Assembly: GCA_964388175.1 (NCBI GenBank)
Contig: CAYLYS010000004.1
Span: 2,347 to 66,346, forward strand
Origin: an uncultured Chromatiales bacterium
GTDB taxonomy: Bacteria; Pseudomonadota; Gammaproteobacteria; SZUA-140
Direction: 5' to 3'
Length of the DNA: 64,000 nucleotides
Shown piece by piece: positions 8,845 through 26,826 of this stretch. A program made the translations under genes and the position numbers. The notes beneath the pieces were generated by a model. The model had not been told where the DNA came from, did not search any database, and was given only the letters and a program-made list of their open reading frames with translations. The first letter of the stretch is position 1. Each line of letters begins with the position of its first letter.

Positions 8845-8854
8845 CGCCGGCTCC

Positions 8855-9613
8855 TCATCGGCCTATGGGTATGGTCAGATCCCGCGCCGCCGAAGCACTA
8901 CCTGGAGCAGCGACCGGCGCATCACGATCCGGCAGATTGCGGTCCACCCATTCACGGGTTCTTTCTTCTATCCACTGACGCTCGTGCTCCGGCAAGGGGC
9001 CGCGCGCGATCCGCACATCCCACTCCCACAGCGCCGAGCGCGCCTGACGCACGAAAGGATCGTCCTCTGGCGCGAGATGGATATAAGTGCGCATCGCACC
9101 CAGGGCGCCTTCCAGATCCTCGAGCGCTTCCAGCGCCACCGCCAATCCCCAATAGGCATTGCCCTGAAAAGGCTGCAGTTCGGTGGCGGCGAGGAAGAAA
9201 TCGCGCGCCGTGTCGTAACGCTCGAGTCCGAGCAGCGCATAGCCGAGATTGACATAGGCCTCCGGCAGACGCGGAGAGAGCGCGATGACGCGCTCGAGCG
9301 CGACGATGGCTTCCTCGTACCGGCGCGCGTGCAGCATGACCACGGCCTGCTCGAAACGCTGCTCGATCTCGGCCATGCGCGGATCGACCGGCGCCTGGCG
9401 CGATGTCTCTTGCCGCGCCGGCTGCTGCGGCTGCACCGCGGAAGCCGCCGCGACGACACGTGACGGCGATTGTCCGGGAAGATGCGCATTGAGCAGCAGC
9501 GATTTCAGATCGGGCCGCATCGCCAGCATGAAGATGGTGCACAGGATGATGCCGACGATGCTGAGCGACAGCGCCGATATCGCCGATTCATGCGGGTGCC
9601 GGCGCACGCTCAT
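8855..9613 (-). CDS. Membrane-anchored TPR-repeat protein
   Basis: N-terminal TM helix (ISALSLSIVGIILCTIFMLA), then TPR-like repeats (YEEAIVALERVIALSPRLPEAYVNLGYALLGLERYDTARDFF ... GNAYWGLAVAL). ATGA overlap with the ccsA stop. Confidence 0.6.
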   Translation of the reverse strand: MSVRRHPHESAISALSLSIVGIILCTIFMLAMRPDLKSLLLNAHLPGQSPSRVVAAASAVQPQQPARQETSRQAPVDPRMAEIEQRFEQAVVMLHARRYEEAIVALERVIALSPRLPEAYVNLGYALLGLERYDTARDFFLAATELQPFQGNAYWGLAVALEALEDLEGALGAMRTYIHLAPEDDPFVRQARSALWEWDVRIARGPLPEHERQWIEERTREWVDRNLPDRDAPVAAPGSASAARDLTIPIGR

Positions 9614-10470
9614 ATCACGCCCTTGTGCGCCGCTTCGCTGTAGAACGGCGTACCGAAATAGGTGAAGAAGGCGAAAGCGAACACGCCGATGATGGTCGCC
9701 GCGCCCACGCGCGGCGCAATGTTATAGGTGAAGCGCACGTGGATGGCGAGACCGAGCAGCAGCCAGTTGAGAAACGACGAGGTTTCGAGCGCATCCCAGG
9801 CCCAGTAGCGTCCCCAGGCATCCTGGGCCCAGACCGCGCCGGCGATCAGCATCAGGCTTTCGAAAACCAGCGCCAGCAGCATGAAGCGCCAGGCCACGGT
9901 ATCGAGTACGTCGTCGCCGGGCATGTGGCGGAAGAGATAGCGGAAACCTACCACGTCGCGCAACAGAATGATGCCGGCAAGACCGGTGCCGATGAGGCAA
10001 AAAGCGAGGAAGAATTTGCCGAAAATGACGTGCGCCCATTTCCAGTCGTGATAATAGGTCGGCGGGAAGGGGCTGGCGGCGGGATCGACCGTCACCACCC
10101 AGGCGCTCATGACCAGCAGGATCGGCAACACCACGACGGCTGTCGGCCTGATCAGGGGAATGCGCCAATAGACCACGGTGTATACCAGCCCGAGACTGAA
10201 CAGCTGGCTGATGAGCAGTTCGAACAGATCGACGAAAGGTCCGTGCCCCACCCGCAGCCAGCGCTCCGTCAGGGCGATCGTCAGCAGAATGACCGCCGCG
10301 GCGAGCAGCGTGAGCACATAGGTTTCCGGACGCCGGGAAAGCACGGCAGCGGTGCTGGTACGTCCTCCCGCGCGCAGTACGCCATGGGCGGCCAGCGCCA
10401 TTGCCAGCGCATAGCTGGCTATGCCCGCATACAGCCATGGCAGTTCCGACACCATGGTTTCCGTGTTCAT
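9610..10470 (-). CDS. ccsA: Cytochrome c-type biogenesis protein CcsA/ResC (System II heme-handling, WWD domain)
   Basis: Tryptophan-rich WWD motif WGRYWAWDALE and polytopic membrane topology. Start at MNTETMVSEL (ATG 10470, with GAGAGGA upstream). ATGA overlap with the resB stop. Confidence 0.85.
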   Translation of the reverse strand: MNTETMVSELPWLYAGIASYALAMALAAHGVLRAGGRTSTAAVLSRRPETYVLTLLAAAVILLTIALTERWLRVGHGPFVDLFELLISQLFSLGLVYTVVYWRIPLIRPTAVVVLPILLVMSAWVVTVDPAASPFPPTYYHDWKWAHVIFGKFFLAFCLIGTGLAGIILLRDVVGFRYLFRHMPGDDVLDTVAWRFMLLALVFESLMLIAGAVWAQDAWGRYWAWDALETSSFLNWLLLGLAIHVRFTYNIAPRVGAATIIGVFAFAFFTYFGTPFYSEAAHKGVI

Positions 10471-11498
10471 AGCGTTTTTCCTCTCGCCACATCGGATGCC
10501 GCATGCTTGCGGTCGGCCTCGCGGGCAATGGCATAGGTATGAACGGTGCCGAACTTGCGCCAGAAATGCGCGGCGAGCCCGAATACCGTGATGAACGCGA
10601 CGATGAACAGCCACTGCAAGGTCGGATCATAATACAACTTATAGCCCATCCAGCTCGACAGACGCTCATAACGCAGAAAACCGTCATCGAGCCGGATCGA
10701 TTGCCCCTGCGCCAGCTCCACGCGCTCATCTCCTGCGCGCACCACCAGCATGCCGCGCGCGTTCGCCGGCTCCAGGCGCCAGTCGGTCTGCGGATCCATG
10801 CCCGTTTCCAGTTGCAGCCAGAAGCGGATTTCCTGATCTCCCGGCCCCGGCACCCAGCGGTTCGCCTGGCGATGCTCGAACAGCGGATACGAGGGCATGT
10901 GAATGGCGCCGGTGACGGGCACGCCGGCGTCCGGCGTCCAGGTCAGGATGGCGGCAAAACCTTTGTTGAACGTGGTATAGAAGCGATAGCCGTCGAGCAC
11001 CAGCGGCGTATGGTCGCCGATCACCCGATGCTCCCAACCACCGCGGCCATCGGCAACGGCAATCTGGCTGCGCGTCGCGCCGCGCACCATGCCCGTGGAG
11101 TAATCGATGGCATACGGCCCCTGCAGGAAGTGCACGCGCTCGAAGTTGCCGCGGTGCCAGAGCCCCGTGCGGACATCGATCATGTCATCCGGTGAAAATG
11201 CCTGGCCTTCGGCGAGTTCGACGTTGGCTTCGAGGTAGGTCAGCCGGCCGATCGCAACGAGAACGGCGATGGCCAGCAGGCCGATATGGAACACCAGCAG
11301 GCCGCCGCGGCGGTTGATGCGCGGATCGGTGATGATGGCAGCGCACAGATTGATGGACAGCACGGTCAGCGGCGCAACCAACACCCAGACCGGCGTATCG
11401 ACAGGGTTGTCGTAGTTCAGCGCCGCACCCAAGCCGAGGAACACCATACCGAAAACGGTCAGACGCGTCGACGCGAGTTTGCGCAGAGCGCCACTCAT
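10467..11498 (-). CDS. resB: Cytochrome c biogenesis protein ResB/CcsB (System II)
   Basis: About 343 aa. N-terminal TM helices, a large periplasmic domain and a C-terminal TM, as in ResB. Start MSGALRKL at 11498 overlaps the undecaheme stop. Directly upstream of ccsA. Confidence 0.75.
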   Translation of the reverse strand: MSGALRKLASTRLTVFGMVFLGLGAALNYDNPVDTPVWVLVAPLTVLSINLCAAIITDPRINRRGGLLVFHIGLLAIAVLVAIGRLTYLEANVELAEGQAFSPDDMIDVRTGLWHRGNFERVHFLQGPYAIDYSTGMVRGATRSQIAVADGRGGWEHRVIGDHTPLVLDGYRFYTTFNKGFAAILTWTPDAGVPVTGAIHMPSYPLFEHRQANRWVPGPGDQEIRFWLQLETGMDPQTDWRLEPANARGMLVVRAGDERVELAQGQSIRLDDGFLRYERLSSWMGYKLYYDPTLQWLFIVAFITVFGLAAHFWRKFGTVHTYAIAREADRKHAASDVARGKTL

Positions 11499-14251
11499 GG
11501 CAGGTTCACGCAGGCCTCGTTGCTGTTGTTCATCCAATCGACGCCGACGATGGCGTTGCCGGGCGGGCCGGCCGAACCGCAGTTGACGTCCAGCCACTCG
11601 CCGCTGCGGGCGAAGCTGCGGATCTTCAGCGCGGAACCGAGATAGTAAGGCCCCTGATAATAGCGCCCGGTGCCGGACGACGCGAAACCGCTGTAGCGCA
11701 CCTGGGTACCCGGCGGCAGCTCGGCTTCCAGGCCGACGTCGTTGAGGTTGGCGAGGAAGGTCTTGTTCTTCCAGCCGTGCGGAATGGCGATGTGGCAATA
11801 GGTGCAGCGGAAATTCTGCACCACGAAGGCATGGCCCACATGCAGATTGACGCCGAGGAACTGCAGGCAGCCGCCACCTCCCACCGCGCGGCGGAATCCA
11901 CTCAACACCACGTCCGGATTGGGCGACAGCACGCCACGCGCATAGTTCTTGGGATCATGGCAGCGGAAGCACAGGTGATTGGCCGAATCCTCCTCAGTAG
12001 GACGCAAAGTGTTTGTTCCAGTCTGATCGTTCCAGTTGCCCTTGAGCAGGAAATTCTCGTCCGAACCGTGCGGTCCCCAGGGGAAACCATGCTCCCCACC
12101 CTCTGGCACCACGGTGTCACCCCGCGTACGTGAACCATGGCAGTCCGTGCAATACATGGTCTGCGTACCGACCGCCGTATTGAAGGGCGGACGCCAGGCA
12201 TTGCCGTCCGCGCCGCGCACCGCCGGCGTCCGTCCGGTCGGCTGCAGCGTGGGATGCCATGAGCGATGGTTGTTGGTGACGTAGTCGACCAGATTGCCCT
12301 GCGGATCGAGGCGCGAGAACGTCACCACGCCCTGGCCGCCGGAATCGGTCACCGTCGCCGGCACCGGCGCCTGTGCGCCGATATAGGCGCCGGTCGGCGT
12401 TCCCGGCGTGACCTCGCCCTGATGATCGCGCGGCGACTGGAACTCCATGCCCTGGTTGGTGTAATTGAACAGGGAGTTGGTGCCCGCCGGCGTCAGCCCG
12501 GAGGTATATCCCAGCGGCGGCGGAATATCGTAGGCGTAATTCGAGTGGCACTTCATGCACAGCTGATACTCGCGCGTCAGATACGGCGCGCTGACATCGG
12601 TGCTGCCGCCGACACCGGGATCGCCACGCTTGACCTGGAAATCGACCGGAATGCTGCCGAAGGCGGTATTGGCGTAGACCGGCTCGACGCCCCAGATGCC
12701 GCGCAGCACGCCCGAGGCGAGATTGCTCGGCGGAATGCCCGGCGTATGCTCGTGCGTCGGACCCGGATCGGGCACCGTCGGATCGGCGTTGAACAGACGG
12801 GTGCGCTGCACGCGATGCGGATTGTGGCAGTCGGTGCATTCGGCATGACGATTGGCGAGACCGCCGAGGCCGAGCAGTTCGCGCGACTCGATGAAATCCT
12901 GGCCGCGCTGCATGCCCTGCGTCGCGTCGTCGCCGGTGCCGATGTTGTGTACCTCACCCCCCGACAGTTGATCGGTGTTCGAGATCGGCATGTGCCGCGC
13001 CATGGTGGTGAAGTCAGTCTTGATGTCCGGAACTTCGAAGGCCGGATTGCTATTCGGACTGTTCTGTCCCTGCAGCGTCTGCGCGGTCGGCGGCCCGACG
13101 GCAGGATCGCCATGGCAGGCATAGCACACGTTTTCGATCGAGGGGTTGCCGCCCTGGCGGGCGCCGGTGACCGGATCGAGAGGGCCGTCGGTGCCTTCGC
13201 GCAGGATGCGCCGCGAACCCTGTACCGTGTGCGGATCGTGGCAGTTCAGACAGGCCGCCTGCCACACGCGCGTGCCGCGCGGGAATTCGCGCAGATCGGC
13301 GGCCTCGTTCGTATAACGCTCATCCGCCACCGCCGGATTGGCGTGCGCCGAACCGGCCCAGCCTTCCTTGTCGTGGCAGGCGAGGCAGATGATGTCGCGC
13401 TGCGCATCGAACTGTCCCTGCACCGGCGGCTGCTGCTGGAAGCGGTTCACGCGCAGGAACTTGATGTTCTCGCCCGGTACCTGCGAACGCAGATGGGGAT
13501 CGTGGCAGGTGATGCACTCCACCTTGGGACCGACGCCGTCGGCATCGCGTTCGAGCGGCAGATACTGGCCGCGCGGCAGCGGCTGGCGCGCTTCTCCGTC
13601 GATACGGCGCACGCGCTCATCCAGCCATGGCACCGAATTGGGATCGAACAGCTCGCCGTCACGCGCCGCCTGGGCGCTGTCGTAGGTGAAGGAGATCGGA
13701 TGGTCGTTGCTGAGATCGACGCCGAGATGACGGGTGAAGCCGGTCGTCACGCCGTGTCCCTGCGGTATCGTTCCCGGCGGTGAGCTGTCGCCGGCAGGGA
13801 AGGTGAACGGTACCGTGCGACCATCGCGGTTGGGCTGATCGCGATTGAGCACGTTGACCGCGCCGAGGGCAATAGTGCCGTCGTGGCACGACAGACACAG
13901 CTTGGACCGGCCCGTGGGCTGGCCGAGGTCGGTGGCGTCGATGGAACTCGATGAATACGGAATATAGGCCGTCTGCCGCAACTCGCGGTTCCACAGCGGC
14001 GCGTTCTGCGCGGGCGTCGCGCCGTGCGGCGTGTGGCAGAACACGCAGATCTGCGACTCTTCCGTGGCGAAGGCGCGGCGTTCGGTGCCGTCGGGGAGCG
14101 TGATACCAGCGGGCGGAACCGTGGCGGAGAAATTGTGCCGGGTGTTGGCGATGTCGGAGATCGGGGCCGCCGCCGACGCCCACATCGTCCACAGCGCGGC
14201 ACCGATACAGATGGCGGCGCCGGCGACAAAGGTAGACCAGCGACGCATCAC
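11495..14251 (-). CDS. Undecaheme c-type cytochrome, 918 aa, secreted
   Basis: Signal peptide and 11 CxxCH motifs, several in the form CxxCH(D/N)PH: CVFCH, CLSCH, CITCH, CLACH, CLNCH, CYACH, CTDCH, CMKCH, CTDCH, CFRCH, CTYCH. The N-terminal about 90 aa are homologous to the tetraheme protein at 22706..23545. Confidence 0.85.
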   Translation of the reverse strand: MMRRWSTFVAGAAICIGAALWTMWASAAAPISDIANTRHNFSATVPPAGITLPDGTERRAFATEESQICVFCHTPHGATPAQNAPLWNRELRQTAYIPYSSSSIDATDLGQPTGRSKLCLSCHDGTIALGAVNVLNRDQPNRDGRTVPFTFPAGDSSPPGTIPQGHGVTTGFTRHLGVDLSNDHPISFTYDSAQAARDGELFDPNSVPWLDERVRRIDGEARQPLPRGQYLPLERDADGVGPKVECITCHDPHLRSQVPGENIKFLRVNRFQQQPPVQGQFDAQRDIICLACHDKEGWAGSAHANPAVADERYTNEAADLREFPRGTRVWQAACLNCHDPHTVQGSRRILREGTDGPLDPVTGARQGGNPSIENVCYACHGDPAVGPPTAQTLQGQNSPNSNPAFEVPDIKTDFTTMARHMPISNTDQLSGGEVHNIGTGDDATQGMQRGQDFIESRELLGLGGLANRHAECTDCHNPHRVQRTRLFNADPTVPDPGPTHEHTPGIPPSNLASGVLRGIWGVEPVYANTAFGSIPVDFQVKRGDPGVGGSTDVSAPYLTREYQLCMKCHSNYAYDIPPPLGYTSGLTPAGTNSLFNYTNQGMEFQSPRDHQGEVTPGTPTGAYIGAQAPVPATVTDSGGQGVVTFSRLDPQGNLVDYVTNNHRSWHPTLQPTGRTPAVRGADGNAWRPPFNTAVGTQTMYCTDCHGSRTRGDTVVPEGGEHGFPWGPHGSDENFLLKGNWNDQTGTNTLRPTEEDSANHLCFRCHDPKNYARGVLSPNPDVVLSGFRRAVGGGGCLQFLGVNLHVGHAFVVQNFRCTYCHIAIPHGWKNKTFLANLNDVGLEAELPPGTQVRYSGFASSGTGRYYQGPYYLGSALKIRSFARSGEWLDVNCGSAGPPGNAIVGVDWMNNSNEACVNLP

Positions 14252-15312
14252 GCCTCACCCAGGAGTTGGAATATCATGATACGACCGTTGAAAGCATCAG
14301 CGACGTAGATCCGGTCACGGTGATCCGTCCAGACCCCGGCGGGCAGATAGAACTCTCCGATGCCACTGCCGGAACCTCCGATGGCCAGCAGCAGCTCCCC
14401 TCCATCGTTGAATACTAACAGATGGTCATAATAGGATTCCACCACATAGACATTGCCGTGAGAATCCACCGCAACGCCTTTGGGCCGCGGCATATCGCCG
14501 ACGAAAAGGCCACGCCGGCCGAATTCGCGCACGAATTTTCCGTCGGCATCGAAAATCTGCACTCTCGCATTCAGTGTATCGGTGACGATGAGGCGATCGT
14601 CGACGTAGGTGAGATACGTCGGCGCATTGAATTCACCCGCGCCTTCGCCGTGCGCACCGATGCGTCCGAGCAGCTCGCCGGCATCGCTGAAAATCTTGAC
14701 GTCGTGCGCCTGTGCATCGGCGACGAAGATCCGTCCGCGCGCCGCGTCGCGCACCACGCCGACCGGACGCTCCACTTGGCCGAGACCGATGCTGCCGCGC
14801 GGTTCGCCATCAGCACCGAGGCGCACGATCACCTTCAGATCCGCATCGGCGACCAGGATCTCGCCGTTGGCGCCGGGCGCGATGCCGACCGGCGTCATGA
14901 AACGCACCATCGGCCCGGCCGCCTGCCACAGCAACAGCTTGCCCTGTGCTTCGTCGAAAACGAAAATCGCCCCCCGGCTGACGTCGGTGACGAAGATGCG
15001 TCCGTCCTCGCCGACGAAACCGTTCTGCGGCCGCTGCAGGATCATCGGCGTATGCTTGGAACTGCCCAGCCCGACGACCCAGCTCAGCAAACGGCTGCCG
15101 ATACTGCTCACCTTGGACGAAGAAAAATTCTCCTCACCGGTGAGCTGACCGACCAGCGCATAGCGGGCCGTATCCGGCGCCTGGGGCCAGCGGAAACGCT
15201 CGTCTCCGGCGTATTCATACTGCAGCGTGGCGGGTCCGCTGGCGCATCCGGCCATGAACAGACACAGGAACAGAACGAACGGCAGTCCCGCGCGTGCCTG
15301 ACGCACGCTCAT
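14248..15312 (-). CDS. NHL-repeat (six-bladed beta-propeller) lipoprotein
   Basis: Lipobox FMAGC and six NHL-like repeats (e.g. GRIFVADAQAHDVKIF, DRLIVTDTLNARVQIFD, GNVYVVESYYDHLLVF, DRIYVADAFNGRIMIF). ATGA overlaps on both sides. Confidence 0.8.
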   Translation of the reverse strand: MSVRQARAGLPFVLFLCLFMAGCASGPATLQYEYAGDERFRWPQAPDTARYALVGQLTGEENFSSSKVSSIGSRLLSWVVGLGSSKHTPMILQRPQNGFVGEDGRIFVTDVSRGAIFVFDEAQGKLLLWQAAGPMVRFMTPVGIAPGANGEILVADADLKVIVRLGADGEPRGSIGLGQVERPVGVVRDAARGRIFVADAQAHDVKIFSDAGELLGRIGAHGEGAGEFNAPTYLTYVDDRLIVTDTLNARVQIFDADGKFVREFGRRGLFVGDMPRPKGVAVDSHGNVYVVESYYDHLLVFNDGGELLLAIGGSGSGIGEFYLPAGVWTDHRDRIYVADAFNGRIMIFQLLGEA

Positions 15313-16361
15313 CGCACCGCCGGCTCCGCGTCGACAGGCGCCGCCCCCGGCCAGGACGCCAGTGTCAGAATCTGAATGCGGCGGTTCAGGCTGTCGGCGA
15401 CATAGAGGAATCCTTCGTCCAGCCACAGGTCGGTGATGCGGCGGAAGCGGCCCGGCGCCGAACCGTGCCCACCGATGACGCCGATCAATTGGCTGCCCTG
15501 ATAGACCTTGATGTCGTCGCTGAGATAATCCGCGACGAAGGCGCGCTGCTGATGATCGACGACGATCGCCGTGGGGAAGGTAACGGTATCCTGTTGGAAC
15601 GATTCCCGGTACGCGCCATCCGGGCCCATGACCTGGACCCGCGCCGGACCATAGCGGGTGGCGATGTAATAGCCTGCCGGCCCTTGCGCCAGCGCGGTGA
15701 TGCCGAGAAAACGTCCCGCCCCCGCGCCACGCACGCCGATCGCACCCGACAGCAGTCCGGCAGGGTTGTACACCAGCACGTCATCGTTGAAACCATCGGC
15801 GATGAATACATAACCGGTATCGTCGTTGACCACCACGTTCATCGGACGACCGATGTTGATGCGGTCCTCGATGGTTCTGAGCAGGCGGCCATCGGCATCG
15901 AAATGCAAAACCCGGGCGCCGTCGGTATCGGCGAGGTAGAACGACAGATCGCGGTTGAGATGGATATCGGCGGCGTTGCCATGCAGAACGCCCTTGAGAT
16001 CGAGGACCATGCTCAGGCGGTCGAGGCGCCTGTCATATCTGAACAACTGCTGGTGACCGGCATCGACGATGTAGACCAGATGGCCTTTCGCCGCCACCGC
16101 CACGGGTTGCAGCAGCTGCGTGGAGATCGGCCCCGTCAGCATCTGCCATTCTCCGCTGCCGCTGGGCGCGCTGTCGAGCACCTGCCAAAGCTCGCCCGGC
16201 CCGGTCTGCGCCATGGTTTGCGGCGCCGGAGGCGCCGACGGCGGGGCGAAACGGGCAACATCCTCGCGCGTCAAGGCACAGGCCTGCAGCAGCAGGGCGA
16301 GCGCGGCGAAGATCAGCGCAGCAGGGTAACGTCTTGGGGTACGGAATGACATCTGCCGCAA
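15309..16361 (-). CDS. NHL-repeat beta-propeller lipoprotein (second copy)
   Basis: Lipobox LLQAC and NHL-like repeats (GHLVYIVDAGHQQLFRYD, LSFYLADTDGARVLHFD, GYVFIADGFNDDVLVY, GFLYVADSLNRRIQIL). The start (16361 or 16352) overlaps the 3' end of the upstream triheme gene by about 40-50 nt. Confidence 0.75.
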   Translation of the reverse strand: MRQMSFRTPRRYPAALIFAALALLLQACALTREDVARFAPPSAPPAPQTMAQTGPGELWQVLDSAPSGSGEWQMLTGPISTQLLQPVAVAAKGHLVYIVDAGHQQLFRYDRRLDRLSMVLDLKGVLHGNAADIHLNRDLSFYLADTDGARVLHFDADGRLLRTIEDRINIGRPMNVVVNDDTGYVFIADGFNDDVLVYNPAGLLSGAIGVRGAGAGRFLGITALAQGPAGYYIATRYGPARVQVMGPDGAYRESFQQDTVTFPTAIVVDHQQRAFVADYLSDDIKVYQGSQLIGVIGGHGSAPGRFRRITDLWLDEGFLYVADSLNRRIQILTLASWPGAAPVDAEPAVR

Positions 16362-16924
16362 TTCAGCGTGGGAGAGAATGCGACCTTACCATGACAAACG
16401 CCACAGAAGTCGCCCTGGATGATCGCCGACATGGAAACCGGATTGGCGCCGGCTTGCGGAATGAAGATCGCAGGATGGCAATTGGCGCATGTCAGCCACT
16501 CCGTATGCTGCAGATGGGGAAACCGCACCCACGGCATGGACTGCGTATTCCTGAAAATGATATCGAAATCGACCGGGAACATGTCCATGCTGCCGTCGAG
16601 CGAGGTGCGCGGCTCGATCAGCCTGCGCTCCAATGTCTTCACCCAGTCGATCTGCCCGGAACCATCGCGCGGGAAACCGGCCATGGCCTCATACGGCTGC
16701 TGCAGAACGGCAACCGCTTCGCCGCTGGGATCATGGATGCCGTCCTCCGCGACCGGAGCGATATCGCCGCGCATCTGGAAATGGGCGCCGCGCGACCACA
16801 ATGGCGCATCCTGCTCCTGTTGCGGGAATACGCTGCCCGCGGCACCCGCTGCCGCACTGACCGTCAAGGCCGCACATAGCGCCAGCAGACGCCACGCGCT
16901 CAGCGGATGCCCTCTTTTCATCAT
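16313..16924 (-). CDS. Triheme c-type cytochrome (c7/c3-like), periplasmic, copy A
   Basis: Signal peptide, then FPHLQHTEWLTCANCH, CGVCHGK and CGRCHS: three CxxCH motifs with distal His ligands in c7-like spacing. Paralogous to 18614..19264. Confidence 0.8.
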   Translation of the reverse strand: MMKRGHPLSAWRLLALCAALTVSAAAGAAGSVFPQQEQDAPLWSRGAHFQMRGDIAPVAEDGIHDPSGEAVAVLQQPYEAMAGFPRDGSGQIDWVKTLERRLIEPRTSLDGSMDMFPVDFDIIFRNTQSMPWVRFPHLQHTEWLTCANCHPAIFIPQAGANPVSMSAIIQGDFCGVCHGKVAFSPTLNCGRCHSVPQDVTLLR

Positions 16925-18507
16925 CTCACGCCCATCGCCTGCAAAGCGCGCTGAATATTGCTGGTGGCGCCCTGCAGCATGAGTATGGCTTCCTGGTAAT
17001 TACCGCGCGCGGCCTCGGGTTCGGACAAGGCCTTGACCTCTCTCGCCCGGTCGATGAACGGCATGATCAGCTTTCTGGTCTGCTCATTGGGTTCGCGCTG
17101 CTGAATGGCGAGCGGCACCAATCCTTCATAACCGAGGTAGCGCGACAGCTCGTATTCATATTCATCGCGTGGCGTCTGAAACACCAGTTCATGCACGATG
17201 GTCTGTTCGGCCAGCATCTCGGTCAGCGCCGTAGTCAGCGTATTCTGGGCGCCGCCCAGCATGCTGATCGCCTCGTTGTACTTGCCGTCATCGGCAAGCG
17301 ACCTGGCGTTGCTCATGACGCTCTCGATCTGCTTCAGATCGACGGCGCGGACGTTGCTTCGCCCCTTGTTCTTGACCATCTGCTCGTAGTTGCGGCGGTA
17401 CGAGGCCTCGAACCCCTGCACACCCTCATACATCTCCAGGAAACGGGCGCGCTCGGCCTCGCCGCGCGATTCCTGAGGCACCAGCAGGGAAGACTCGCTC
17501 ATCAGCCGCATGGCATCTTCGACCAGAGGCAGCGCATTCTGCTGTTCGCCGGCGGACAGCGCGCCGCGGGCTTGCTCGAAACGCTGCTGCGCATCGCGGT
17601 AGAGAGCGAGCGCGGTCTCGTTGCCGCTGTCGCGGATGCGCGCGGCAGCCGGCGACTGATTGATGAACATGTCGGCGAACTGAATCTTCTGCTGGATCTG
17701 CTGCGCCGATACGTTGCGCTGCTGCGCGCTCTGTGCACCCGCATCCGCGGTTCCCGGCATCTTGCCGCCGCGAGCGGCCTGCAGCTCGGCGATGGACAGA
17801 TTCTCCTGCCCCTCATTGACGATGTAGATCGGGCCACCCATGTTCCGGTGGTTTCGGCACTGGTAATAGAGCAGATCCGGCGCCTGCGCACTCGGCGTGA
17901 ACGTCACCACACCTTCATAGATGAACTGGCCGCTGACGCCATCGACATAGGTCGCGGCACCCCAGCCGACCTCGCTGCCGGAAAGGTAGAAATCGTGCTG
18001 TATGCCGGCATTGACGCTGAAACGATAGGTCTTGCCTCTCACCATCACCAGCGGCTTGCCCTGCACGCCATTGACTACGAATCCCATGCGATGGCCGACG
18101 CCATAGTAGGGATGCGAAGTATCCTTGGTCTCGGTGACGACATTGAACAGGAAAGGCGAGCTCGGCGGCGCCTCGCGCGCCGGCACCGCGGCAGGGACAG
18201 GAACGGATGAAGGCGCCGACGCCGACTCGGCTGGAACCGGAGCTGGTGCCGCTTCCACCGTCGCCGCGGAGGGTTCGGGTTGCAGCGGCACGACCTCGGC
18301 GACAGGCGTCTCCTCGGCGGGCGCTGGCTGGAGAAGCGCCGACGATGGGATGACCACTGTCACCTCCTGGGGCGAAGCAGCAACGGCAGACGGCGCCGAC
18401 GCTGCGGTCGGAGCGGAAGCAGGCGCATCGCTTCCGGTCGTGGCGCAGGCGGACAGCGTCAGCGCGATGATTGCCGGGAACAGCAGGCTAGGGAAACGGG
18501 ATCGCAT
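16921..18507 (-). CDS. Lipoprotein with Pro/Ala-rich linker, cupredoxin-like (putative type-1 copper) domain and long alpha-helical C-terminal domain
   Basis: Lipobox LTLSAC with a strong SD (AGGGAGGA) before ATG 18507. About 110 aa P/A/S-rich linker. Domain with candidate copper ligands (His in IQHDFY; C-x2-H-x2-M in YYQCRNHRNMGG). About 300 aa Q/A/R/E-rich helical tail. Confidence 0.55.
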   Translation of the reverse strand: MRSRFPSLLFPAIIALTLSACATTGSDAPASAPTAASAPSAVAASPQEVTVVIPSSALLQPAPAEETPVAEVVPLQPEPSAATVEAAPAPVPAESASAPSSVPVPAAVPAREAPPSSPFLFNVVTETKDTSHPYYGVGHRMGFVVNGVQGKPLVMVRGKTYRFSVNAGIQHDFYLSGSEVGWGAATYVDGVSGQFIYEGVVTFTPSAQAPDLLYYQCRNHRNMGGPIYIVNEGQENLSIAELQAARGGKMPGTADAGAQSAQQRNVSAQQIQQKIQFADMFINQSPAAARIRDSGNETALALYRDAQQRFEQARGALSAGEQQNALPLVEDAMRLMSESSLLVPQESRGEAERARFLEMYEGVQGFEASYRRNYEQMVKNKGRSNVRAVDLKQIESVMSNARSLADDGKYNEAISMLGGAQNTLTTALTEMLAEQTIVHELVFQTPRDEYEYELSRYLGYEGLVPLAIQQREPNEQTRKLIMPFIDRAREVKALSEPEAARGNYQEAILMLQGATSNIQRALQAMGVR

Positions 18508-18560
18508 TCCTCCCTCATATACTCTGGCATACATTCGGGCACACACTCAGACAGACATCC

Positions 18561-18596
18561 GGCGGAGACAGAAGGCCCGCCCTGAACGGGCGGGCC
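18561..18596 (-). terminator. GC-rich hairpin (GGCCCGCCC-TGAAC-GGGCGGGCC) followed on the transcript by a U-rich tract (UUCUGUCUCC); candidate intrinsic terminator or attenuator
   Basis: Perfect 9-bp stem read at 18574-18596, 18 nt downstream of the triheme B stop codon and upstream of the cupredoxin gene RBS. Confidence 0.4.
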
Positions 18597-18613
18597 TGAC
18601 TACCAAAACAATT

Positions 18614-19264
18614 TTATCTCCAAGGATTCTTGACGGTCGCCTCGCTCAACGGTGGCTTCCAGTCCGCGGGCTTGGGCTTGGAATGACACTTCCCGCAGGT
18701 CGTCGTGGTCACCGGGAAGGACACCTTGCCATGGCACACGCCGCATTTCTCACCCAGCAGAATAGCAGACATGTTGATCTGATTGGATCCCGCCTGCGGC
18801 ACGAAGATCGCCGGATGGCAGTTCGAGCAGAACAGCCATTCCGTATGCTGCCGATGCGGGAACACCACATCCGGCATCGATGCCTTCACCGGTCTGACGA
18901 TATCGAGATCCATGACGAAGGGCTCTTCCGATGAATCGATGCGATCCCAGCGCGGGCGCAGCAGACCTTGATCCAGCGCCTGCACCCAGTCGATACGGTT
19001 GCCGAACACGGTACGCGGCAATCCCTGATAGGCTTCTTCCGGCGGCTGCAGCGAGAAGGTCGCCTCGTTGCTGGTGTCGTGGATACCGTCTTCCCACGGC
19101 GGCGGATTGGCGCTGTCACGCTTCTTCAGGTTGACGTTGAACTCATTGGCGGAAGAAACGCGCGATTCCTGCGCCGATACCGACTGTATCTGCCAAGGCA
19201 GCGCAAAAACCACCAGTGCAGCGGACAGACCGAGTGCGATCGAGACTTTCTTGATGATATTCAT
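18614..19264 (-). CDS. Triheme c-type cytochrome (c7/c3-like), copy B
   Basis: Signal peptide, then FPHRQHTEWLFCSNCH, CGVCHGK and CGKCHSK. Clear paralog of copy A (shared DGIHD, IDWVQAL and HTEWL blocks). Confidence 0.8.
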   Translation of the reverse strand: MNIIKKVSIALGLSAALVVFALPWQIQSVSAQESRVSSANEFNVNLKKRDSANPPPWEDGIHDTSNEATFSLQPPEEAYQGLPRTVFGNRIDWVQALDQGLLRPRWDRIDSSEEPFVMDLDIVRPVKASMPDVVFPHRQHTEWLFCSNCHPAIFVPQAGSNQINMSAILLGEKCGVCHGKVSFPVTTTTCGKCHSKPKPADWKPPLSEATVKNPWR

Positions 19265-19287
19265 GGCTCACTCTCTCCCGTCCGTCA

Positions 19288-19737
19288 TTATTGCTGCGAC
19301 TGTGCGCCGGCTGCGGGGTCCAGCGGCTTGAATGCCGGGGCCACGAGACGCTGCACGGTGCTGCCGTGGAAGTGAGTGGGAGTGCCGGGAATACCGGAAT
19401 GGCACATGGCACAGTTTTCGACCGACCAGGCCACCTCGCCGTTGTGGCAGGCGCCGCAGAACTGGCCGTCCACGATCTTGGCCATCGTGATCTGATTACC
19501 GCCCGCCTTGAACTGGAAGCCCAGGTCGGCGTGGCAAACCTTGCAGCGGAAACGCACGCGATGGAACCAGTGCGGGAACACCACTGGACGCATGGCCGCG
19601 GCATCGGAATAGTTATTGATGACGACGTCGCCGTATTCCGCCTGTGCTGGCTGCGGCGCCGCCCATATCCACAAACCGATCAGGAGCCCCGCAAACAGCG
19701 AGATGCGCGCAGGCATCCGAGAGATCATCGATGGCAT
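19288..19737 (-). CDS. Triheme c-type cytochrome, copy C (divergent, 149 aa)
   Basis: Signal peptide, then FPHWFHRVRFRCKVCH, CGACHNG and CAMCHSG. Same heme spacing logic but low identity to A and B. Confidence 0.8.
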   Translation of the reverse strand: MPSMISRMPARISLFAGLLIGLWIWAAPQPAQAEYGDVVINNYSDAAAMRPVVFPHWFHRVRFRCKVCHADLGFQFKAGGNQITMAKIVDGQFCGACHNGEVAWSVENCAMCHSGIPGTPTHFHGSTVQRLVAPAFKPLDPAAGAQSQQ

Positions 19738-19814: not shown

Positions 19815-21578
19815 TCAGAAACGACGGTTTATCTGAAAATAGATAATATTGTAATTGTCGTCATTCTGATCGCCGGAGAAACTGATGTAGCGCCAGCTCA
19901 GACTGGTATCCACCAGCCCGATCACGTAGTCCAGTCGGTTCTCCCACTCTGCGCGGTCTATCCCCTCGTCCGTGGCCGCGCGCGCAATACGCAAATCCGA
20001 GTTGAACCGAAGCTGGGCTATGTCGAACAAGCCCATGTGCCGGTAGGTCACCTGGCCGGTTGCGGTTACTGTATCATTATCCCGCAGCCCGTTGAAGTCC
20101 CGGCTCACCATTTGCACCGTCAGATTTCCGCTCAACATGCTGTACAGACTGAGCGTCTGATTGCGCATGAACTGCAGATTGGCGAATTGCTGATTGTCGT
20201 CCTGATCGCCGAATCCGCGGGAATCCGACAATGTCAGGTGGATCATCGTCGTCCCGCTCTCACCGTGCCGGTCCCATGACAGGCTGCCGGTGTGATCCAG
20301 GCGCTGGGTATTGATATCATCGGCCGTATCCGCCGTTTGATAAACCGTGCTAACCGACTGGCTCAGACTCAGGCGGAAAGTCCCCCGTCCATCCGTCATC
20401 CACATGCGCTGCGCATCGTGCCCGAGGCGGACCAGCCCGGTCAGCAAGTCCTCGCTGCCGGTATTCTGGTTCTGGGCCGATGCCTGAGCATGCCAGTTAT
20501 AGGTGAAATGGGTGAAAAGCGGGCGCAGATCGGATTGATAGAGCGCGCCGAGGCGCTGCCGGGAGGTCATATCCACACCGGCGGTATTGGTGTCCGTGAC
20601 ATCGACATTGGCGTCGAAACGCAGATTCTTCGTGTACTGATAAAAAGCGCCGGCGGTGGCGCTGACGCTGGCCTGATCGATCTCCCTGCCAGCGTTACTC
20701 GCCGCCATGTCGAAGAGGCGCACGCCCGCGCTCACCGACAGCGGTCTGTCGACCGGCCGCCAGAACAGAAAGCTCGACACCTGGGTATACGTTATATCCG
20801 CCCTGGCCAGATTGGTGCTGCCGGGCGCCTGTGCCGACCGGGTATCGGAATCGTAGTAGCTGACCATGGTATCGAAGCGCAGCGCCCGATCCGGATGGTA
20901 GAAGTGCTCGACGTTGAGCAGCTTGATATCGTTGTCCTGATCGATGGTCGCCAGCTCTATTTGCTGGTAGCTGGTCCTGGCGCTCAGGGTATGCTGCGGG
21001 CGGCGCATATTGTATTCCAGCCCGATCAGCTGATCCTTGTAGCTCTCGATACCGCGCGACTCCCAGGTGCCATGATCGAAGCGCAACTGAAAACGATCGC
21101 CGACTTCGGTCAGATAGCTCTGGCGCAGCGACAGCCGCCGCGTCTGAAAGTCATAACTGCTGAGCCCGGACACGGGATTGGGCAGCGTGACCGAATCGAC
21201 GCGGCTGTCGCTCATGCGGTAGGACAGCGAAAAAGGGGTACGGCTTTGCGGCAGGACGTTGAGATCGAGATCGAGACCGAGAATGGTCGTGCGCGATGAG
21301 GCGCCCGCATCATAGCTGCTGGCATCCTGGGTCGCGCGCAGCCCCGCGGACAGATTGGCGAACCACGGCTCCCACAGATAGGCCTGCGCGTTCAGCGCGG
21401 CACGCAACTGGTTGCTGTGCGCATCGCTGTTGTCGCTGCCCGTGATCGAACGGAAGGTATAGCCGACACTGCCGGAAACGTCGCTCACTCCGACCGCCGC
21501 CGCCGCAGCCTGCGCACTCCACAGCGCCGCGGCCACCGCGCACAGCATCGAACCGAGTTGACGCTTCCCCTCTGGCAT
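19815..21578 (-). CDS. Putative outer-membrane beta-barrel protein (587 aa, no heme-binding motif)
   Basis: Signal peptide (MLCAVAAALWSAQAAAAAV). Sequence rich in alternating hydrophobic/polar stretches and Y/W/F. C-terminal aromatic residue (...YFQINRRF). Only one Cys in the whole protein, so no CxxCH. Confidence 0.55.
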   Translation of the reverse strand: MPEGKRQLGSMLCAVAAALWSAQAAAAAVGVSDVSGSVGYTFRSITGSDNSDAHSNQLRAALNAQAYLWEPWFANLSAGLRATQDASSYDAGASSRTTILGLDLDLNVLPQSRTPFSLSYRMSDSRVDSVTLPNPVSGLSSYDFQTRRLSLRQSYLTEVGDRFQLRFDHGTWESRGIESYKDQLIGLEYNMRRPQHTLSARTSYQQIELATIDQDNDIKLLNVEHFYHPDRALRFDTMVSYYDSDTRSAQAPGSTNLARADITYTQVSSFLFWRPVDRPLSVSAGVRLFDMAASNAGREIDQASVSATAGAFYQYTKNLRFDANVDVTDTNTAGVDMTSRQRLGALYQSDLRPLFTHFTYNWHAQASAQNQNTGSEDLLTGLVRLGHDAQRMWMTDGRGTFRLSLSQSVSTVYQTADTADDINTQRLDHTGSLSWDRHGESGTTMIHLTLSDSRGFGDQDDNQQFANLQFMRNQTLSLYSMLSGNLTVQMVSRDFNGLRDNDTVTATGQVTYRHMGLFDIAQLRFNSDLRIARAATDEGIDRAEWENRLDYVIGLVDTSLSWRYISFSGDQNDDNYNIIYFQINRRF

Positions 21579-21626: not shown

Positions 21627-22622
21627 TTATTCCGATGGCAACGAATCGGCCGCGCCCACGCCGATCAATTCCTCGTTGACCGTGATCGCCGTCGTCTCAT
21701 GCAGGCGCGCCAGTGCATCCTGCCATGCGCGCTCGCTCAGCTCCCGGTGCAACAGATCACCGGCGCGCTCCGCCACCAGATCGAATGCGTTCAGCTGCGG
21801 AACGACGCGCTCGTCCAGCCGGAAAAGCGCATAGCCCTGCAGCATCTGCAGCGGCGCCGAGAACGTGCCGGGCTGCATGGCATCCAGCACCTCCTGCGCC
21901 TCGCGCGCCAGCATGCCCTTGTGGACATAGCCGAGATCACCGCCCTGCGCCGCCGATCCATCCGCCGAATGCAGCCGCGCCAGATCGGAAAATGACGCTC
22001 CGTCTTTCAGTTTCGCATACAGGCGCTGCGCCTCTTCCTGCGCCGCCTCCCATACAGCGCCACCGGACCAGGGTTCGACCCTGAGCAGTATCATCGACAC
22101 ACGCAGGCGTTCCGGCGTCGTGAATTTGTCCGGCTGCGCCCGGTAATACGCCAGCACGGCCTCCCGATCCGGCGCCGGCACCTGCTCGATCCGCTGCCGC
22201 AGCTGCGCGATGACGCTGTCCCCCATCAACTGCGCCCGCAGGGCTTCGCGCGCGGCAACCGGGTCGGCGCTGGCGGCGATGCGCTCGGTCAGCATGGTCA
22301 TCCGGGCATCCATCCACCGCTCATCCGGCGCGATGCCCTGGCGTTCCGCCTCCTGCAGCAACAGCAATCTGTCGACCATCGCCGCGGCGACTTCACGCCG
22401 GAAGGCAGCGATATCGGCGGCGGGCACCTGACCATGATAGAAGCGCTGTCGGACGCCGGCATGGAAATTCGCCTCGAATTCATCGATCGGGATCACCGTT
22501 CCGCCGACCACGGCAAAGACATCGGCACGATCCGGCGTTTCCTCCTGCTTGTCCTCCACACCGGCATGGCCCGCTGTCGTCAGCAGCAGAAACAAGGCCA
22601 TCGTGATCGAGAAAATCCGCAT
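21627..22622 (-). CDS. Periplasmic peptidyl-prolyl cis-trans isomerase (SurA/PpiD-like parvulin)
   Basis: Signal peptide MRIFSITMALFLLLTTAGHA, a SurA-like N-terminal chaperone region and a parvulin signature (SDGSAAQGGDLGYVHKGMLAREAQEVL ... FSAPLQMLQGYALFRL). The start could also be the Met at 22634. Confidence 0.7.
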   Translation of the reverse strand: MRIFSITMALFLLLTTAGHAGVEDKQEETPDRADVFAVVGGTVIPIDEFEANFHAGVRQRFYHGQVPAADIAAFRREVAAAMVDRLLLLQEAERQGIAPDERWMDARMTMLTERIAASADPVAAREALRAQLMGDSVIAQLRQRIEQVPAPDREAVLAYYRAQPDKFTTPERLRVSMILLRVEPWSGGAVWEAAQEEAQRLYAKLKDGASFSDLARLHSADGSAAQGGDLGYVHKGMLAREAQEVLDAMQPGTFSAPLQMLQGYALFRLDERVVPQLNAFDLVAERAGDLLHRELSERAWQDALARLHETTAITVNEELIGVGAADSLPSE

Positions 22623-22705
22623 CCGAGAATACATGCCAGTCCGGAGCCATGGGGCGGCGGCATTCTGCCCGCAGCATGCCCTGCCGCCCAGGTAGCGCTC
22701 GCCCG

Positions 22706-23545
22706 TCATTTATTGTGGCAAGTCAGACACACTGAACTGCCCACGGGGTCTACGCGCAAAAACAGAGGGTTGTAATCGACATGGGGATCATGGCAGGAAG
22801 CGCATTCCACATAGGGCTGCGGTTCGCCGACGAACACCCCGCGCGTTGCGACCCGGGTGTACAGCTTCATGTCGGACTTTTCGAAATCCGACGATCCCCC
22901 GACGGTACGGGTGTTGACCCACCAGAATCTTTCGCTGCCGACGATCTTGGTTTCCGCCTGATGGAAATCCGGATCGCGCCCCGGCCCGTGCGGATTGGCC
23001 TGGGAATAGCCGCCGCCGGCATACTGCACCGAAACCGGATGATCGTCGCGCAGATCCTTGCCGAGATTGGTGATGACCGTCACCGGGCCGATCCGCCCGC
23101 CCACCGGCGCGGCCTGGCCGCTCCAGACTCCCGCCCTGAAGGCCCAGTTCTCCGCGCCCGAGCCCGGCTCGTTGATCAGTGCGTCCATGGCCTGCGTCCC
23201 GTCGTGACAGGACAGGCAGGCGATCGATACCGAGCCGATCGGCTCGATGGCCGCATCGAGACTGGTGGAACCCAGCTGGTCATAGGTGGTGAATCCGGCA
23301 CTGCCGGGATCGATGTAGCGATTCCACAGAGGAACGGCGACCGAGGCATCGGCGCCGTGCGGCGTATGGCAGAAAACGCAGATCTCCGACGTGCCGCTGA
23401 AATTGCTCGCGGCATTGACGCCGGTACTGCCAAGATTATGCTTGGTATTGAAGATACCGGCGTTGACGGCGTGCGCCGACAGCAGTACGGCCCCGAGCAT
23501 GAGAACCAGCCAGGAACGTCTGCAAGTATGGTGACTTGCTCGCAT
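22706..23545 (-). CDS. Tetraheme c-type cytochrome, secreted
   Basis: Signal peptide and CVFCHTPHG, CLSCHDG, CASCHDPH, CLTCHNK. The N-terminal module NTKHN...CVFCHTPHG...PLWNR...CLSCHDG matches the N-terminus of the undecaheme. Confidence 0.8.
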   Translation of the reverse strand: MRASHHTCRRSWLVLMLGAVLLSAHAVNAGIFNTKHNLGSTGVNAASNFSGTSEICVFCHTPHGADASVAVPLWNRYIDPGSAGFTTYDQLGSTSLDAAIEPIGSVSIACLSCHDGTQAMDALINEPGSGAENWAFRAGVWSGQAAPVGGRIGPVTVITNLGKDLRDDHPVSVQYAGGGYSQANPHGPGRDPDFHQAETKIVGSERFWWVNTRTVGGSSDFEKSDMKLYTRVATRGVFVGEPQPYVECASCHDPHVDYNPLFLRVDPVGSSVCLTCHNK

Positions 23546-23581
23546 TGTTGCTTTTCATCCCCCTCTGGTCGCCGTGACCGG

Positions 23582-23611
23582 CGGACCACCCCACCGACGC
23601 CGGGTGGTCCG
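23582..23611 (-). promoter_or_regulatory. Hairpin (CGGACCACCC - 10 nt loop - GGGTGGTCCG) in the leader between the porin gene and the first cytochrome gene
   Basis: Perfect 10-bp inverted repeat read directly. No U-tract follows; a GAGGGGGAT SD for the tetraheme gene lies downstream. Confidence 0.35.
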
Positions 23612-23670
23612 GGAACTTTACCATACTTTCCGATCGATCAGCATCACGAACGCTCGCGCTCGGCGCGTGC

Positions 23671-24777
23671 TCACAGCCCCAGGTTGAAACGATGGATGAT
23701 ACCGGCGGAAACGGTGCTGACATCCTTGCCCGACGCTGCCGGACGAATCACGCTGCCGGCATCGTCATGATCGGGATGCAGGGCATAGCCGGACTGATCA
23801 TCATTCAGCAGGGTCGCGCCGATCAGATAGAACTCCGTGCGCGGCGACATCGCATAGGAAAACCCGAGCGCCACCATCTGCGCGCCGCTGTCGGGACGCT
23901 GATCCAGTTCGCCCAACTGACCATAGGCCAGCTTCCAGGTGAAATTGCCTGCCACATGCGACAGGCTGCCGTACCAGGCATCGCGCTCGCCATCACCGCC
24001 GGCAAGGCGGCTGCCGTTGTCGGCCTGCTCCCAGATCAGCGCGGCGCGCGTGCCCTGGCCGAAATCCCAGCCGAACACCGCTTTCGTCGCCGAGGCATCA
24101 CGCTGATCGACGGCTTCGACCTGGCCCAGCTTTTCATAACCGATACCGAGATACAGCGGGCCGCTGACGAAGGCCAGCGTGGCGCTGTAACCGTTGAGAT
24201 CGGAAGCCTCGTCCGTACGCGGCAGTTCGTCGCGCTCACGGTCGGCGATGTAGGCGAGCGCGAAACGGATGCGCCTCTGCTCCGGCGTGGCATAGTACAG
24301 AATGTTCCGCGCCCGCTCATTGAACAGCGACTGTCCGTCGACGGCGCCGACGATGGCGCTGTGATCGGCACGGGTATTGCGGAAGATATCCAACTCGTCG
24401 CTCAGCGCGCGATAAGGCGTGACGTGACGCCCGGCCAGCAGCACGCCGAGACTGCCCTCGAGCCCGAGGAAACTGTCACGCCCCTCTTCACTCCAGGCGC
24501 CATCGTCGAGATCGACGCCCTGCTCGAACTGCCAGATGACGGAAAGCCGGTCGCGCAGACGCTCGCTGCCACGCAAACCGATGAACGACTTGTTGCTGCT
24601 CACCAGCAAAGCGTATTTTTTGACCGGCTCCTCTCCCGCAAGCGCATCGCCGTTGCCGATGACATCCACCGAGACGTGCGCCGTGCCATAGAGCTCGATC
24701 GCACTCTGTGCCGCTCCCGGCAGCGTGAGCGCCGCGATTGCCAGACACCATATCGGCGCTTTGGAATTCATATTCAC
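23671..24777 (-). CDS. General porin (Gram-negative trimeric porin family)
   Basis: Signal peptide LAIAALTLPGAAQSA, 16-strand-porin-like amphipathic pattern and C-terminal ...HRFNLGL. Confidence 0.7.
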   Translation of the reverse strand: MNMNSKAPIWCLAIAALTLPGAAQSAIELYGTAHVSVDVIGNGDALAGEEPVKKYALLVSSNKSFIGLRGSERLRDRLSVIWQFEQGVDLDDGAWSEEGRDSFLGLEGSLGVLLAGRHVTPYRALSDELDIFRNTRADHSAIVGAVDGQSLFNERARNILYYATPEQRRIRFALAYIADRERDELPRTDEASDLNGYSATLAFVSGPLYLGIGYEKLGQVEAVDQRDASATKAVFGWDFGQGTRAALIWEQADNGSRLAGGDGERDAWYGSLSHVAGNFTWKLAYGQLGELDQRPDSGAQMVALGFSYAMSPRTEFYLIGATLLNDDQSGYALHPDHDDAGSVIRPAASGKDVSTVSAGIIHRFNLGL

Positions 24778-24941
24778 TCCAGTCAGATAGCCAGGGGAAA
24801 GTAGTCAAGGGGGCAAGATACAAGATAGGCGACGCCGGACACAAGCCGGGATGCGGCCAGATGCGCGCAGGTCCCATACCGCCATAAAAAAAGCCGGGCA
24901 CGAGGCCCGGCTTTTCACTACAGGTACTACTTCGCGTCGGA

Positions 24942-26808: not shown

Positions 26809-26826
26809 CTCGATCTATCCTGCTTT

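Follow-up and report, generated by a model that had tools for sequence, protein, structure and literature searches.

The 64,000-nucleotide stretch analysed here (the window, from contig CAYLYS010000004.1 of an uncultured Chromatiales bacterium) encodes three small triheme cytochromes, termed A, B and C, which are very probably the orthologues of UetG, UetE and UetD, respectively, the presumed periplasmic trihemes of a predicted electron-uptake cluster; this explanation accounts best for the region as a whole. The cluster, uetABCDEFGHIJ ('undecaheme electron transfer'), was described in 'Candidatus Tenderia electrophaga' and the order Tenderiales (Eddie et al. 2022, bioRxiv 10.1101/2022.05.06.490989, also mSphere 7:e00223-22). 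Few candidate routes exist by which aerobic lithoautotrophs could draw electrons directly from cathodes or Fe(II) minerals; Uet is among them, and is entirely predicted. The window holds one more complete, syntenic copy of this already described system, from a related uncultured gammaproteobacterium, and leaves the current picture of Uet unchanged; as to the role of the three trihemes, we lean towards a relay. What the window adds is a putative axial methionine conserved in the trihemes, an N-terminal extension of UetE and UetG that proves to be a widespread module, lipoboxes in UetF, UetH and UetI, and a position-conserved hairpin that splits the operon after uetE; the gain lies in targets for expression and structural work.

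The original prediction had placed three open reading frames for c7-like triheme cytochromes on the minus strand, and these stand, with their coordinates exact:

19288-19737, minus strand: C, the probable UetD orthologue, a short-form triheme cytochrome of 149 amino acids (PF14522, TIGR04257) with a signal peptide of ~33 amino acids, a c7-type domain at residues 47-114 (nucleotides 19396-19599) and a 35-amino-acid C-terminal tail.
18614-19264, minus strand: B, the probable UetE orthologue, a long-form triheme cytochrome of 216 amino acids (PF14522, TIGR04257) with a signal peptide, an extension at ~residues 57-128 (nucleotides 18881-19096) and a c7-type domain at residues 129-195 (nucleotides 18680-18880).
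16313-16924, minus strand: A, the probable UetG orthologue, a long-form triheme cytochrome of 203 amino acids (PF14522, TIGR04257) with a signal peptide at residues 1-~30, an extension at ~56-126 (nucleotides 16547-16759) and a c7-type domain at residues 127-194 (nucleotides 16343-16546).

Each protein contains exactly three CxxCH motifs in the layout that had been reported, F-P-H-x-x-H ... CxxCH ... CGxCH ... CxxCH, and A, B and C all pass the curated cut-offs of Pfam PF14522 (Cytochrome_C7; 46.5, 43.9 and 57.7 bits, respectively, against 24.8) and NCBIfam TIGR04257 ('c(7)-type cytochrome triheme domain'; 64.6, 60.2 and 67.6 bits against 40). Sec-type signal peptides, read from the sequence at the N-termini of all three and modelled by AlphaFold2 as a helix at residues 9-29 of A, suggest that the proteins are located outside the cytoplasm, probably in the periplasm, with mature lengths of ~170-185 amino acids for A and B and ~116 for C. 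The paralogy of A and B extends along almost the entire sequence (48% identity over 188 amino acids, E = 1e-54, the N-terminal part included), although to call the two close overstates the case, as the identity between orthologues is higher (58-83%). C is shorter and divergent, as proposed, and its alignment with A and B is confined to the ~70-amino-acid heme domain (41-44% identity). Homology to NapB- or NrfB-type reductase subunits, the outcome that the original prediction had set against its own reading, was not found: NCBIfam returned no NapB or NrfB match for A, B or C at E <= 0.01, and Pfam and NCBIfam family searches of the neighbouring genes found neither nap nor nrf catalytic genes. 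Readings as cytochrome c3 or DsrJ were likewise rejected for lack of family matches, with PF02085 at or below its cut-off.

The evidence that carries the assignment is gene order. The published cluster consists of genes for a tetraheme cytochrome, a peptidyl-prolyl isomerase, a barrel, triheme D, triheme E, a cupredoxin, triheme G, two NHL-repeat proteins and an undecaheme cytochrome, followed by ccsBA and nrfG (Eddie et al. 2022). The content and order of genes in the window match this cluster gene for gene, including the heme counts of 4 and 11. The partner genes that the original prediction had not seen nearby thus lie immediately on both sides of the trihemes:

22706-23545, minus strand: probable UetA orthologue, a tetraheme cytochrome (four CxxCH; Paired_CXXCH_1).
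21627-22709, minus strand: probable UetB orthologue, a SurA/PpiC-type peptidyl-prolyl isomerase (PF00639, 58.9 bits, and a SurA_N domain).
19815-21578, minus strand: probable UetC orthologue, a putative large outer-membrane beta-barrel of 587 amino acids with a signal peptide and a C-terminal Phe, assigned by position and orthology.
18574-18596, minus strand: GC-only stem-loop after uetE, with a stem of 9 base pairs and a loop of 5 nucleotides.
16921-18546, minus strand: probable UetF orthologue, a cupredoxin-containing lipoprotein (Cu ligands, lipobox) of 541 amino acids as an open reading frame.
15309-16361, minus strand: probable UetH orthologue, an NHL-repeat beta-propeller (PF01436 and PF17170 matches for UetH and UetI).
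14248-15426, minus strand: probable UetI orthologue, an NHL-repeat beta-propeller (matches as for UetH).
11495-14251, minus strand: probable UetJ orthologue, an undecaheme cytochrome of 918 amino acids (eleven CxxCH; Paired_CXXCH_1 and MtrC/MtrF-like domain matches).
8143-11495, minus strand: System II cytochrome c maturation and accessory set (PF01578, TPR and DSBA matches), comprising a ccsB-like gene (~10467-11495), ccsA (9610-~10470), a TPR/NrfG-like gene (8855-9613) and a DsbA-like gene (8143-8844), all on the minus strand.

As in the Tenderia cluster, the c7-type trihemes of the window are three in number, are encoded in the order short, long, long between the barrel and NHL genes, and have the cupredoxin gene between E and G; the flanking tetraheme, peptidyl-prolyl isomerase, undecaheme, ccsBA and TPR genes are also shared. 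The window differs in the organism and in a DsbA-like gene after the TPR gene, which is also present in related loci. UetC has no match in Pfam or NCBIfam. The same gene set has later been reported in some Gallionella (PMC10734462) and in some Leptothrix (PMC13386937).

A scan of GTDB species-representative genomes yielded 21 related loci, which were compared by tblastn with all window proteins. In every locus that is long enough (L001-L015 and L020), all from metagenome-assembled genomes (MAGs) labelled Chromatiales or Gammaproteobacteria, the uet genes and the accessory genes that follow them are in the same order, so that the cluster is shared with at least 15 other gammaproteobacterial MAGs; rearranged versions are found in L016-L019, which derive from a Burkholderiaceae MAG and other MAGs. 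'Ca. T. electrophaga' is absent by name from these 21 loci and from the listed homologues. Conservation within the cluster is greatest among the cytochromes. Identity across the related loci is 74-94% for UetD, the highest value in the cluster, 66-83% for UetE and 58-78% for UetG, compared with 34-72% for UetC and 35-61% for UetF; identity to the nearest representatives is 94% for UetD, 82% for UetE, 78% for UetG and 81-82% for UetJ. In a distance tree D, E and G form three clades with one repeated species topology and mean identities within clades of 74%, 71% and 63%, respectively, while E and G share 40%. As the three are separate, co-diverging orthogroups, these sequences indicate that the E/G duplication predates the whole group. 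An extra adjacent pair of triheme genes, one of the long form (UetG-like) and one of the short form (UetD-like), is present in the distant relatives L016 (12309-13090), L017 (1868-2679) and L018 (1872-2713), which come from a Burkholderiaceae, a Rhodospirillales and a gammaproteobacterial MAG. The long and short forms may work as pairs.

The original prediction had likened the heme domains to the PpcA-type c7 of Geobacter and proposed alignment to that family as a check. This likeness is not borne out. Searches against PDB sequences matched the tetradomain, dodecaheme protein GSU1996 of Geobacter sulfurreducens (3OV0) at E = 1.5e-43 for C and 1.2e-28 for A, and its domain C (1RWJ) at 1.9e-13 and 4.9e-10, whereas similarity to PpcA-type c7 was marginal (E = 0.62 for C, 3H4N; E = 0.026 for A, 4HB6). 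Against the individual GSU1996 domains, C scored best with domain C (53.0 bits) and A tied between domains C and D (38.5 and 38.9 bits). Fold comparison gave the same picture. The AlphaFold2 model of A, built from a diverse alignment of 99 sequences that included distant representatives, had a mean predicted local distance difference test score (pLDDT) of 83.8, with values of 87-95 over residues 55-200, compared with a mean of 51 when 55 close homologues were used. The top match to this model in a Foldseek search of the PDB was 1RWJ (E = 6.5e-4, template modelling score 0.85 on the target), with PpcA entries at E ~1.2 and scores of ~0.6.

The heme ligands point in the same direction. PpcA hemes are all bis-His, the third distal His being His47, located between heme motifs 1 and 2. 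No His is present between the first and second CxxCH of A, B or C; the corresponding region contains a Met instead. This residue lies in an S/T-M-S/A motif (M165 within VSMSAI in A; ITMAKI in C) and its aligned counterpart in GSU1996 is the first Met of 'TMADM', which by chain position corresponds to residues 209 and 287. Met209 and Met287 were identified by nuclear magnetic resonance as axial ligands in domains C and D of GSU1996 (PMC10138318). When 59 triheme orthologues, drawn from the window and related loci, were aligned with the four domains of GSU1996, 58 of the 59 kept both distal His of F-P-H-x-x-H, the Met and all three CxxCH motifs. Since sequence and fold scores favour GSU1996, the third distal His is absent and the Met is aligned, the domain of A, B and C is, as judged from sequence and model, a GSU1996-type 'c7-type' variant and not a PpcA-type c7, in agreement with the published view that domain C of GSU1996 is the best structurally characterised relative of UetD, UetE and UetG (Eddie et al. 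2022). By homology, hemes 1 and 2 would be bis-His through F-P-H-x-x-H and heme 3 His-Met, so that one His-Met heme is expected per triheme.

The likeness to GSU1996 domains A-D (3OV0, 3OUE, 3OUQ, 1RWJ; TIGR04257) thus comprises a triheme domain of ~65 amino acids, two distal His in F-x-H-x-x-H and an axial Met to the last heme at the homologous position. There are also differences. GSU1996 carries four domains in tandem, while A, B and C have a single c7-type domain per polypeptide, and the ~75-amino-acid pre-domain of UetE and UetG has no counterpart in GSU1996 or the PDB. GSU1996, furthermore, acts in the periplasm of a metal reducer, whereas A, B and C belong to the outer-membrane uptake cluster of a presumed lithoautotroph. 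With PpcA-E the three proteins share the order of the three hemes, F-P-H-x-x-H, the short spacing between hemes 2 and 3 and, presumably, a role as periplasmic relays. Mature PpcA-type c7 is a triheme domain alone, of ~70 amino acids; A, B and C are larger through the extension of A and B and the C-terminal tail of C.

GSU1996, the closest solved relative of the trihemes, has been discussed as a capacitor (PMC10138318), and UetD, UetE and UetG might analogously serve mainly as a periplasmic electron store that buffers intermittent contact with the donor rather than carrying the main flux. The very high expression of the trihemes in 'Ca. T. electrophaga' would fit such a store (PMC5371394). Nine hemes in three small proteins, however, offer little capacity compared with dodecaheme polymers, and the strict 1:1:1 gene set and its operon coupling to the barrel and the cupredoxin point to a pathway, which makes a primary storage function very improbable.

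The N-terminal extension had been ascribed, with a length of 90-130 amino acids, to all three proteins. It is present in A and B (~75-100 amino acids), while in C the signal peptide leads directly into the heme domain, from ~residue 47 onward, and the additional sequence is the C-terminal tail. The extension conforms to the consensus DGIHD...LQxPxEA...FPxDxxGxVDWVxALxxGxIxPR, and its invariant or near-invariant positions in A (~residues 56-126) are D61-G62-I-H-D65, Q75, P85-R86, W94-V95, P105-R106 and M130. A role for His64, within the DGIHD motif, as an additional or inter-subunit ligand to heme was rejected; the residue cannot be obligatory because Arg replaces it in some orthologues. With the diverse alignment AlphaFold2 modelled the pre-domain at pLDDT >90 and contiguous with the heme domain. 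The extension lies outside all Pfam and NCBIfam models, a search with the extension alone against PDB sequences found nothing, and all Foldseek matches of the A model in the PDB were confined to ~80 columns of the heme domain, none falling on the extension.

Although it matches no catalogued family, the extension is widespread. An exhaustive phmmer search with residues 40-132 alone retrieved, at E <= 1e-3, at least 209 sequences that each represent a cluster at 50% identity. Exactly three CxxCH motifs are present in 91 of the best 149 of these relatives, and those among the 149 with no CxxCH or a single one are, with few exceptions, short fragments or break off inside the heme domain. Some relatives are tandem proteins with 6, 9 or 15 hemes in which each repeat has its own pre-domain (P0263, P0265, P0267, P0235); others are fused to a class I cytochrome c (P0218, P0298, P0304) or to a DUF1566/Lcl-like domain (for example P0214, from Inmirania thermothiophila). 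Named carriers of the module include Magnetococcales, Magnetovibrio and I. thermothiophila. This recurrence, including the tandem repeats each with their own pre-domain, shows that the extension is part of a recurrent triheme module of ~140 amino acids and not a linker.

The modular nature of UetE and UetG bears on a different arrangement, in which the trihemes would be fixed segments of a wire across the outer membrane. UetD, UetE and UetG would be stacked end to end, providing nine hemes over ~9 nm, partly inside the wide UetC barrel, so that three polypeptides take the place of the single decaheme MtrA, PioA or MtoA, with the extensions of UetE and UetG and the NHL lipoproteins as interfaces. 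There is no MtrA-like periplasmic decaheme in the cluster, the three trihemes always occur together and in a fixed order, and the high identity of UetD relative to UetC would fit many fixed protein contacts. Tandem polymers with 6, 9 or 15 hemes occur among the proteins related to the extended module. The c7-type domains of GSU1996 reportedly align as a continuous wire, at ~3 nm per domain. Furthermore, UetC is predicted to form a 28-strand barrel with a pore of ~5 nm (Eddie et al. 2022). Set against this, those who described the cluster prefer to assign the trans-membrane part to UetA or UetJ (Eddie et al. 2022), and the very high triheme transcript levels fit abundant soluble carriers equally well (PMC5371394). 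We therefore regard a fixed wire as possible but doubtful. Equally tentative is its more specific form, in which UetE and UetG represent an undescribed ~140-amino-acid triheme module whose pre-domains could dock UetD, UetE and UetG into a nine-heme wire that threads or abuts the UetC barrel, a 'split MtrA' of three polypeptides.

A relay remains the preferred role for the trihemes, and the organisation of the operon is consistent with production of its components as a set. The genes uetA and uetB overlap, uetD and uetE are separated by 23 nucleotides, and the stretch from uetF through the TPR gene is an unbroken series of overlapping genes, suggesting that their products are made in a coupled and stoichiometric way; the overlap of uetG and uetH is ~40-49 nucleotides in the window and in related loci, and the dsbA-like gene follows the TPR gene after a gap of 10 nucleotides. 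Downstream of uetC the only long gap in the cluster, of 106 nucleotides if UetF starts at the ATG at 18507, is that containing the hairpin at 18574-18596. This structure, which the original prediction had noted downstream of B and C and upstream of A, is real. It occupies the space between uetE and the gene that follows; its stem is entirely of G and C (GGCCCGCCC/GGGCGGGCC), it lies 18 nucleotides past the uetE stop codon, and it is followed by UUCUGUCUCC, a tail that is poor in U. The 67-nucleotide spacer with the hairpin has a folding energy of -30.4 kcal/mol (z = -3.5 against shuffled sequences), and in most related loci a strong GC hairpin of unrelated sequence directly follows the uetE stop codon. 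A promoter consensus scan found 5 sites against 4.6 expected, which is not above chance.

In 'Ca. T. electrophaga' metatranscriptomics ranked the three trihemes with the most strongly expressed genes of cathode-grown cells, apparently co-transcribed with the intervening gene (UetF) and with no significant change with electrode potential (P > 0.4; PMC5371394). It is plausible that the hairpin sets the ratio of uetA-E to uetF-J transcripts, through partial termination or stabilisation of the 3' end, while on/off switching of the genes by the hairpin is unlikely. The proposal that trihemes on its two sides are differentially expressed thus keeps its premise, a real hairpin of conserved position, and may yet apply; the apparent co-transcription and very high expression of all three in the published data speak against it.

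Differential expression formed part of the original view, in which A, B and C are independent PpcA-like shuttles of different potentials that serve a branching or bidirectional network without dedicated partners. The signal peptides and c7-like fold would suit such carriers, the hairpin could separate their expression, and the divergence between D, E and G would permit different potentials. However, the three genes are embedded in a strictly conserved operon of at least ten genes that also encodes the barrel, multihemes, a chaperone and maturation factors, and their products appear to be fixed components of the uetA-J porin/multiheme cluster rather than loose shuttles. With the predicted Met ligation and the extension of UetE and UetG they are also not of the PpcA type, and the published data indicate co-transcription and no significant response to potential (P > 0.4; PMC5371394). 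Independent shuttles are accordingly an improbable explanation.

The most likely mechanism for the relay follows the proposal of Eddie et al. An outer-membrane module, the UetC barrel with UetA and/or UetJ, would take electrons from an insoluble donor such as an Fe(II) mineral or a cathode. UetD, UetE and UetG would form the periplasmic part of the heme path and move the electrons inward, with the lipoprotein cupredoxin UetF probably acting within or beside this path, and on to inner-membrane acceptors such as cbb3 oxidase, Alternative Complex III (ACIII) or bc1. UetB, UetH and UetI, with the dedicated CcsBA, TPR and DsbA genes, would assemble and hold the complex. The published model likewise places UetD, UetE and UetG in the periplasm and UetA and UetJ outside the cell (Eddie et al. 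2022), and in the window the mechanism is supported by the conserved Cu ligands of UetF and by an ACIII-like cluster. The logic of an outer-membrane barrel, multiheme cytochromes and periplasmic relays that together span the envelope is shared with MtrCAB, PioAB and MtoAB. Unlike these systems, Uet contains no MtrA-type decaheme, UetC shows no similarity to MtrB in Pfam or NCBIfam, and the cluster includes a cupredoxin, two NHL propellers, a peptidyl-prolyl isomerase and its own System II maturation genes.

Several points weigh against this interpretation. Orthology of the trihemes to ALP54625.1, ALP54626.1 and ALP54628.1 rests on synteny and domain content, and the direction of electron flow is taken from the lifestyle of 'Ca. 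T. electrophaga', not from the sequence of the window. GSU1996 has a low potential despite its His-Met hemes, and a high potential suited to uptake should therefore not be assumed for UetD, UetE and UetG. As Pfam, NCBIfam and CxxCH counts reveal no MtrA-like decaheme in the cluster, the trihemes could themselves cross the barrel. With respect to the hairpin, the tail is U-poor, and a terminator consensus scan of the region found 13 sites against 10.9 expected in shuffled sequence, which is not above chance. More generally, no Uet protein has yet been purified or localised, and no uet gene disrupted, in any organism, and the function of the whole system is a prediction; the evidence for it comes from genomics, transcriptomics and proteomics, and the system was still termed 'predicted' as of 2025-2026.

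Three non-heme components of the cluster show features consistent with attachment to membranes. UetF has been called a cupredoxin (Eddie et al. 2022). In the window its translation probably begins from the ATG at 18507, downstream of GAGGGAGGA, a GGAGG-type Shine-Dalgarno sequence, and its N-terminus contains the lipobox LTLSAC. No Pfam domain scores above its cut-off in UetF and a PDB sequence search was empty; the type-1 Cu ligands H184...C230-x2-H233-x2-M236, in an amicyanin-like spacing, are nevertheless kept in all 13 full-length orthologues (13/13). The mature protein begins with an Ala/Pro-rich linker of ~100 amino acids, followed by the cupredoxin, a tethered layout reminiscent of lipid-modified azurins, and its last ~300 amino acids match no family or PDB sequence. 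Lipobox-like N-termini are also found in UetI and UetH (FMAGC and LLQAC), suggesting that both are membrane-anchored lipoproteins; the published PSORTb call for UetH is 'cytoplasmic'.

Immediately upstream of the porin/uet region lie a tRNA gene (26258-26328), the sole match in an Rfam scan of 8-27 kb, and rpsI/rplM (26419-27306), all on the minus strand. Two porin genes upstream of uetA (23671-24777 and 24942-25964) also adjoin the cluster in related loci. The interval 24778-24941, after the porin-like gene at 24942-25964, contains a canonical intrinsic terminator (GCCGGGC-loop-GCCCGGC followed by seven U), and a long GC hairpin within 23546-23670 separates the porin gene at 23671-24777 from uetA. 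At the other end, a BatD-domain gene (6433-8100, plus strand) and other plus-strand open reading frames within 1-8100 converge on the end of the uet region; batABD genes belong to the conserved module in the Tenderiales (Eddie et al. 2022), of which BatD alone was checked in the window. The ACIII-like gene set, at 39168-46663 on the minus strand, encodes a molybdopterin-oxidoreductase-like protein of 745 amino acids, a 4Fe-4S protein of 290 amino acids, an NrfD-like membrane protein of 483 amino acids and several small open reading frames; the electron transport chain that has been proposed for Tenderiales includes ACIII.

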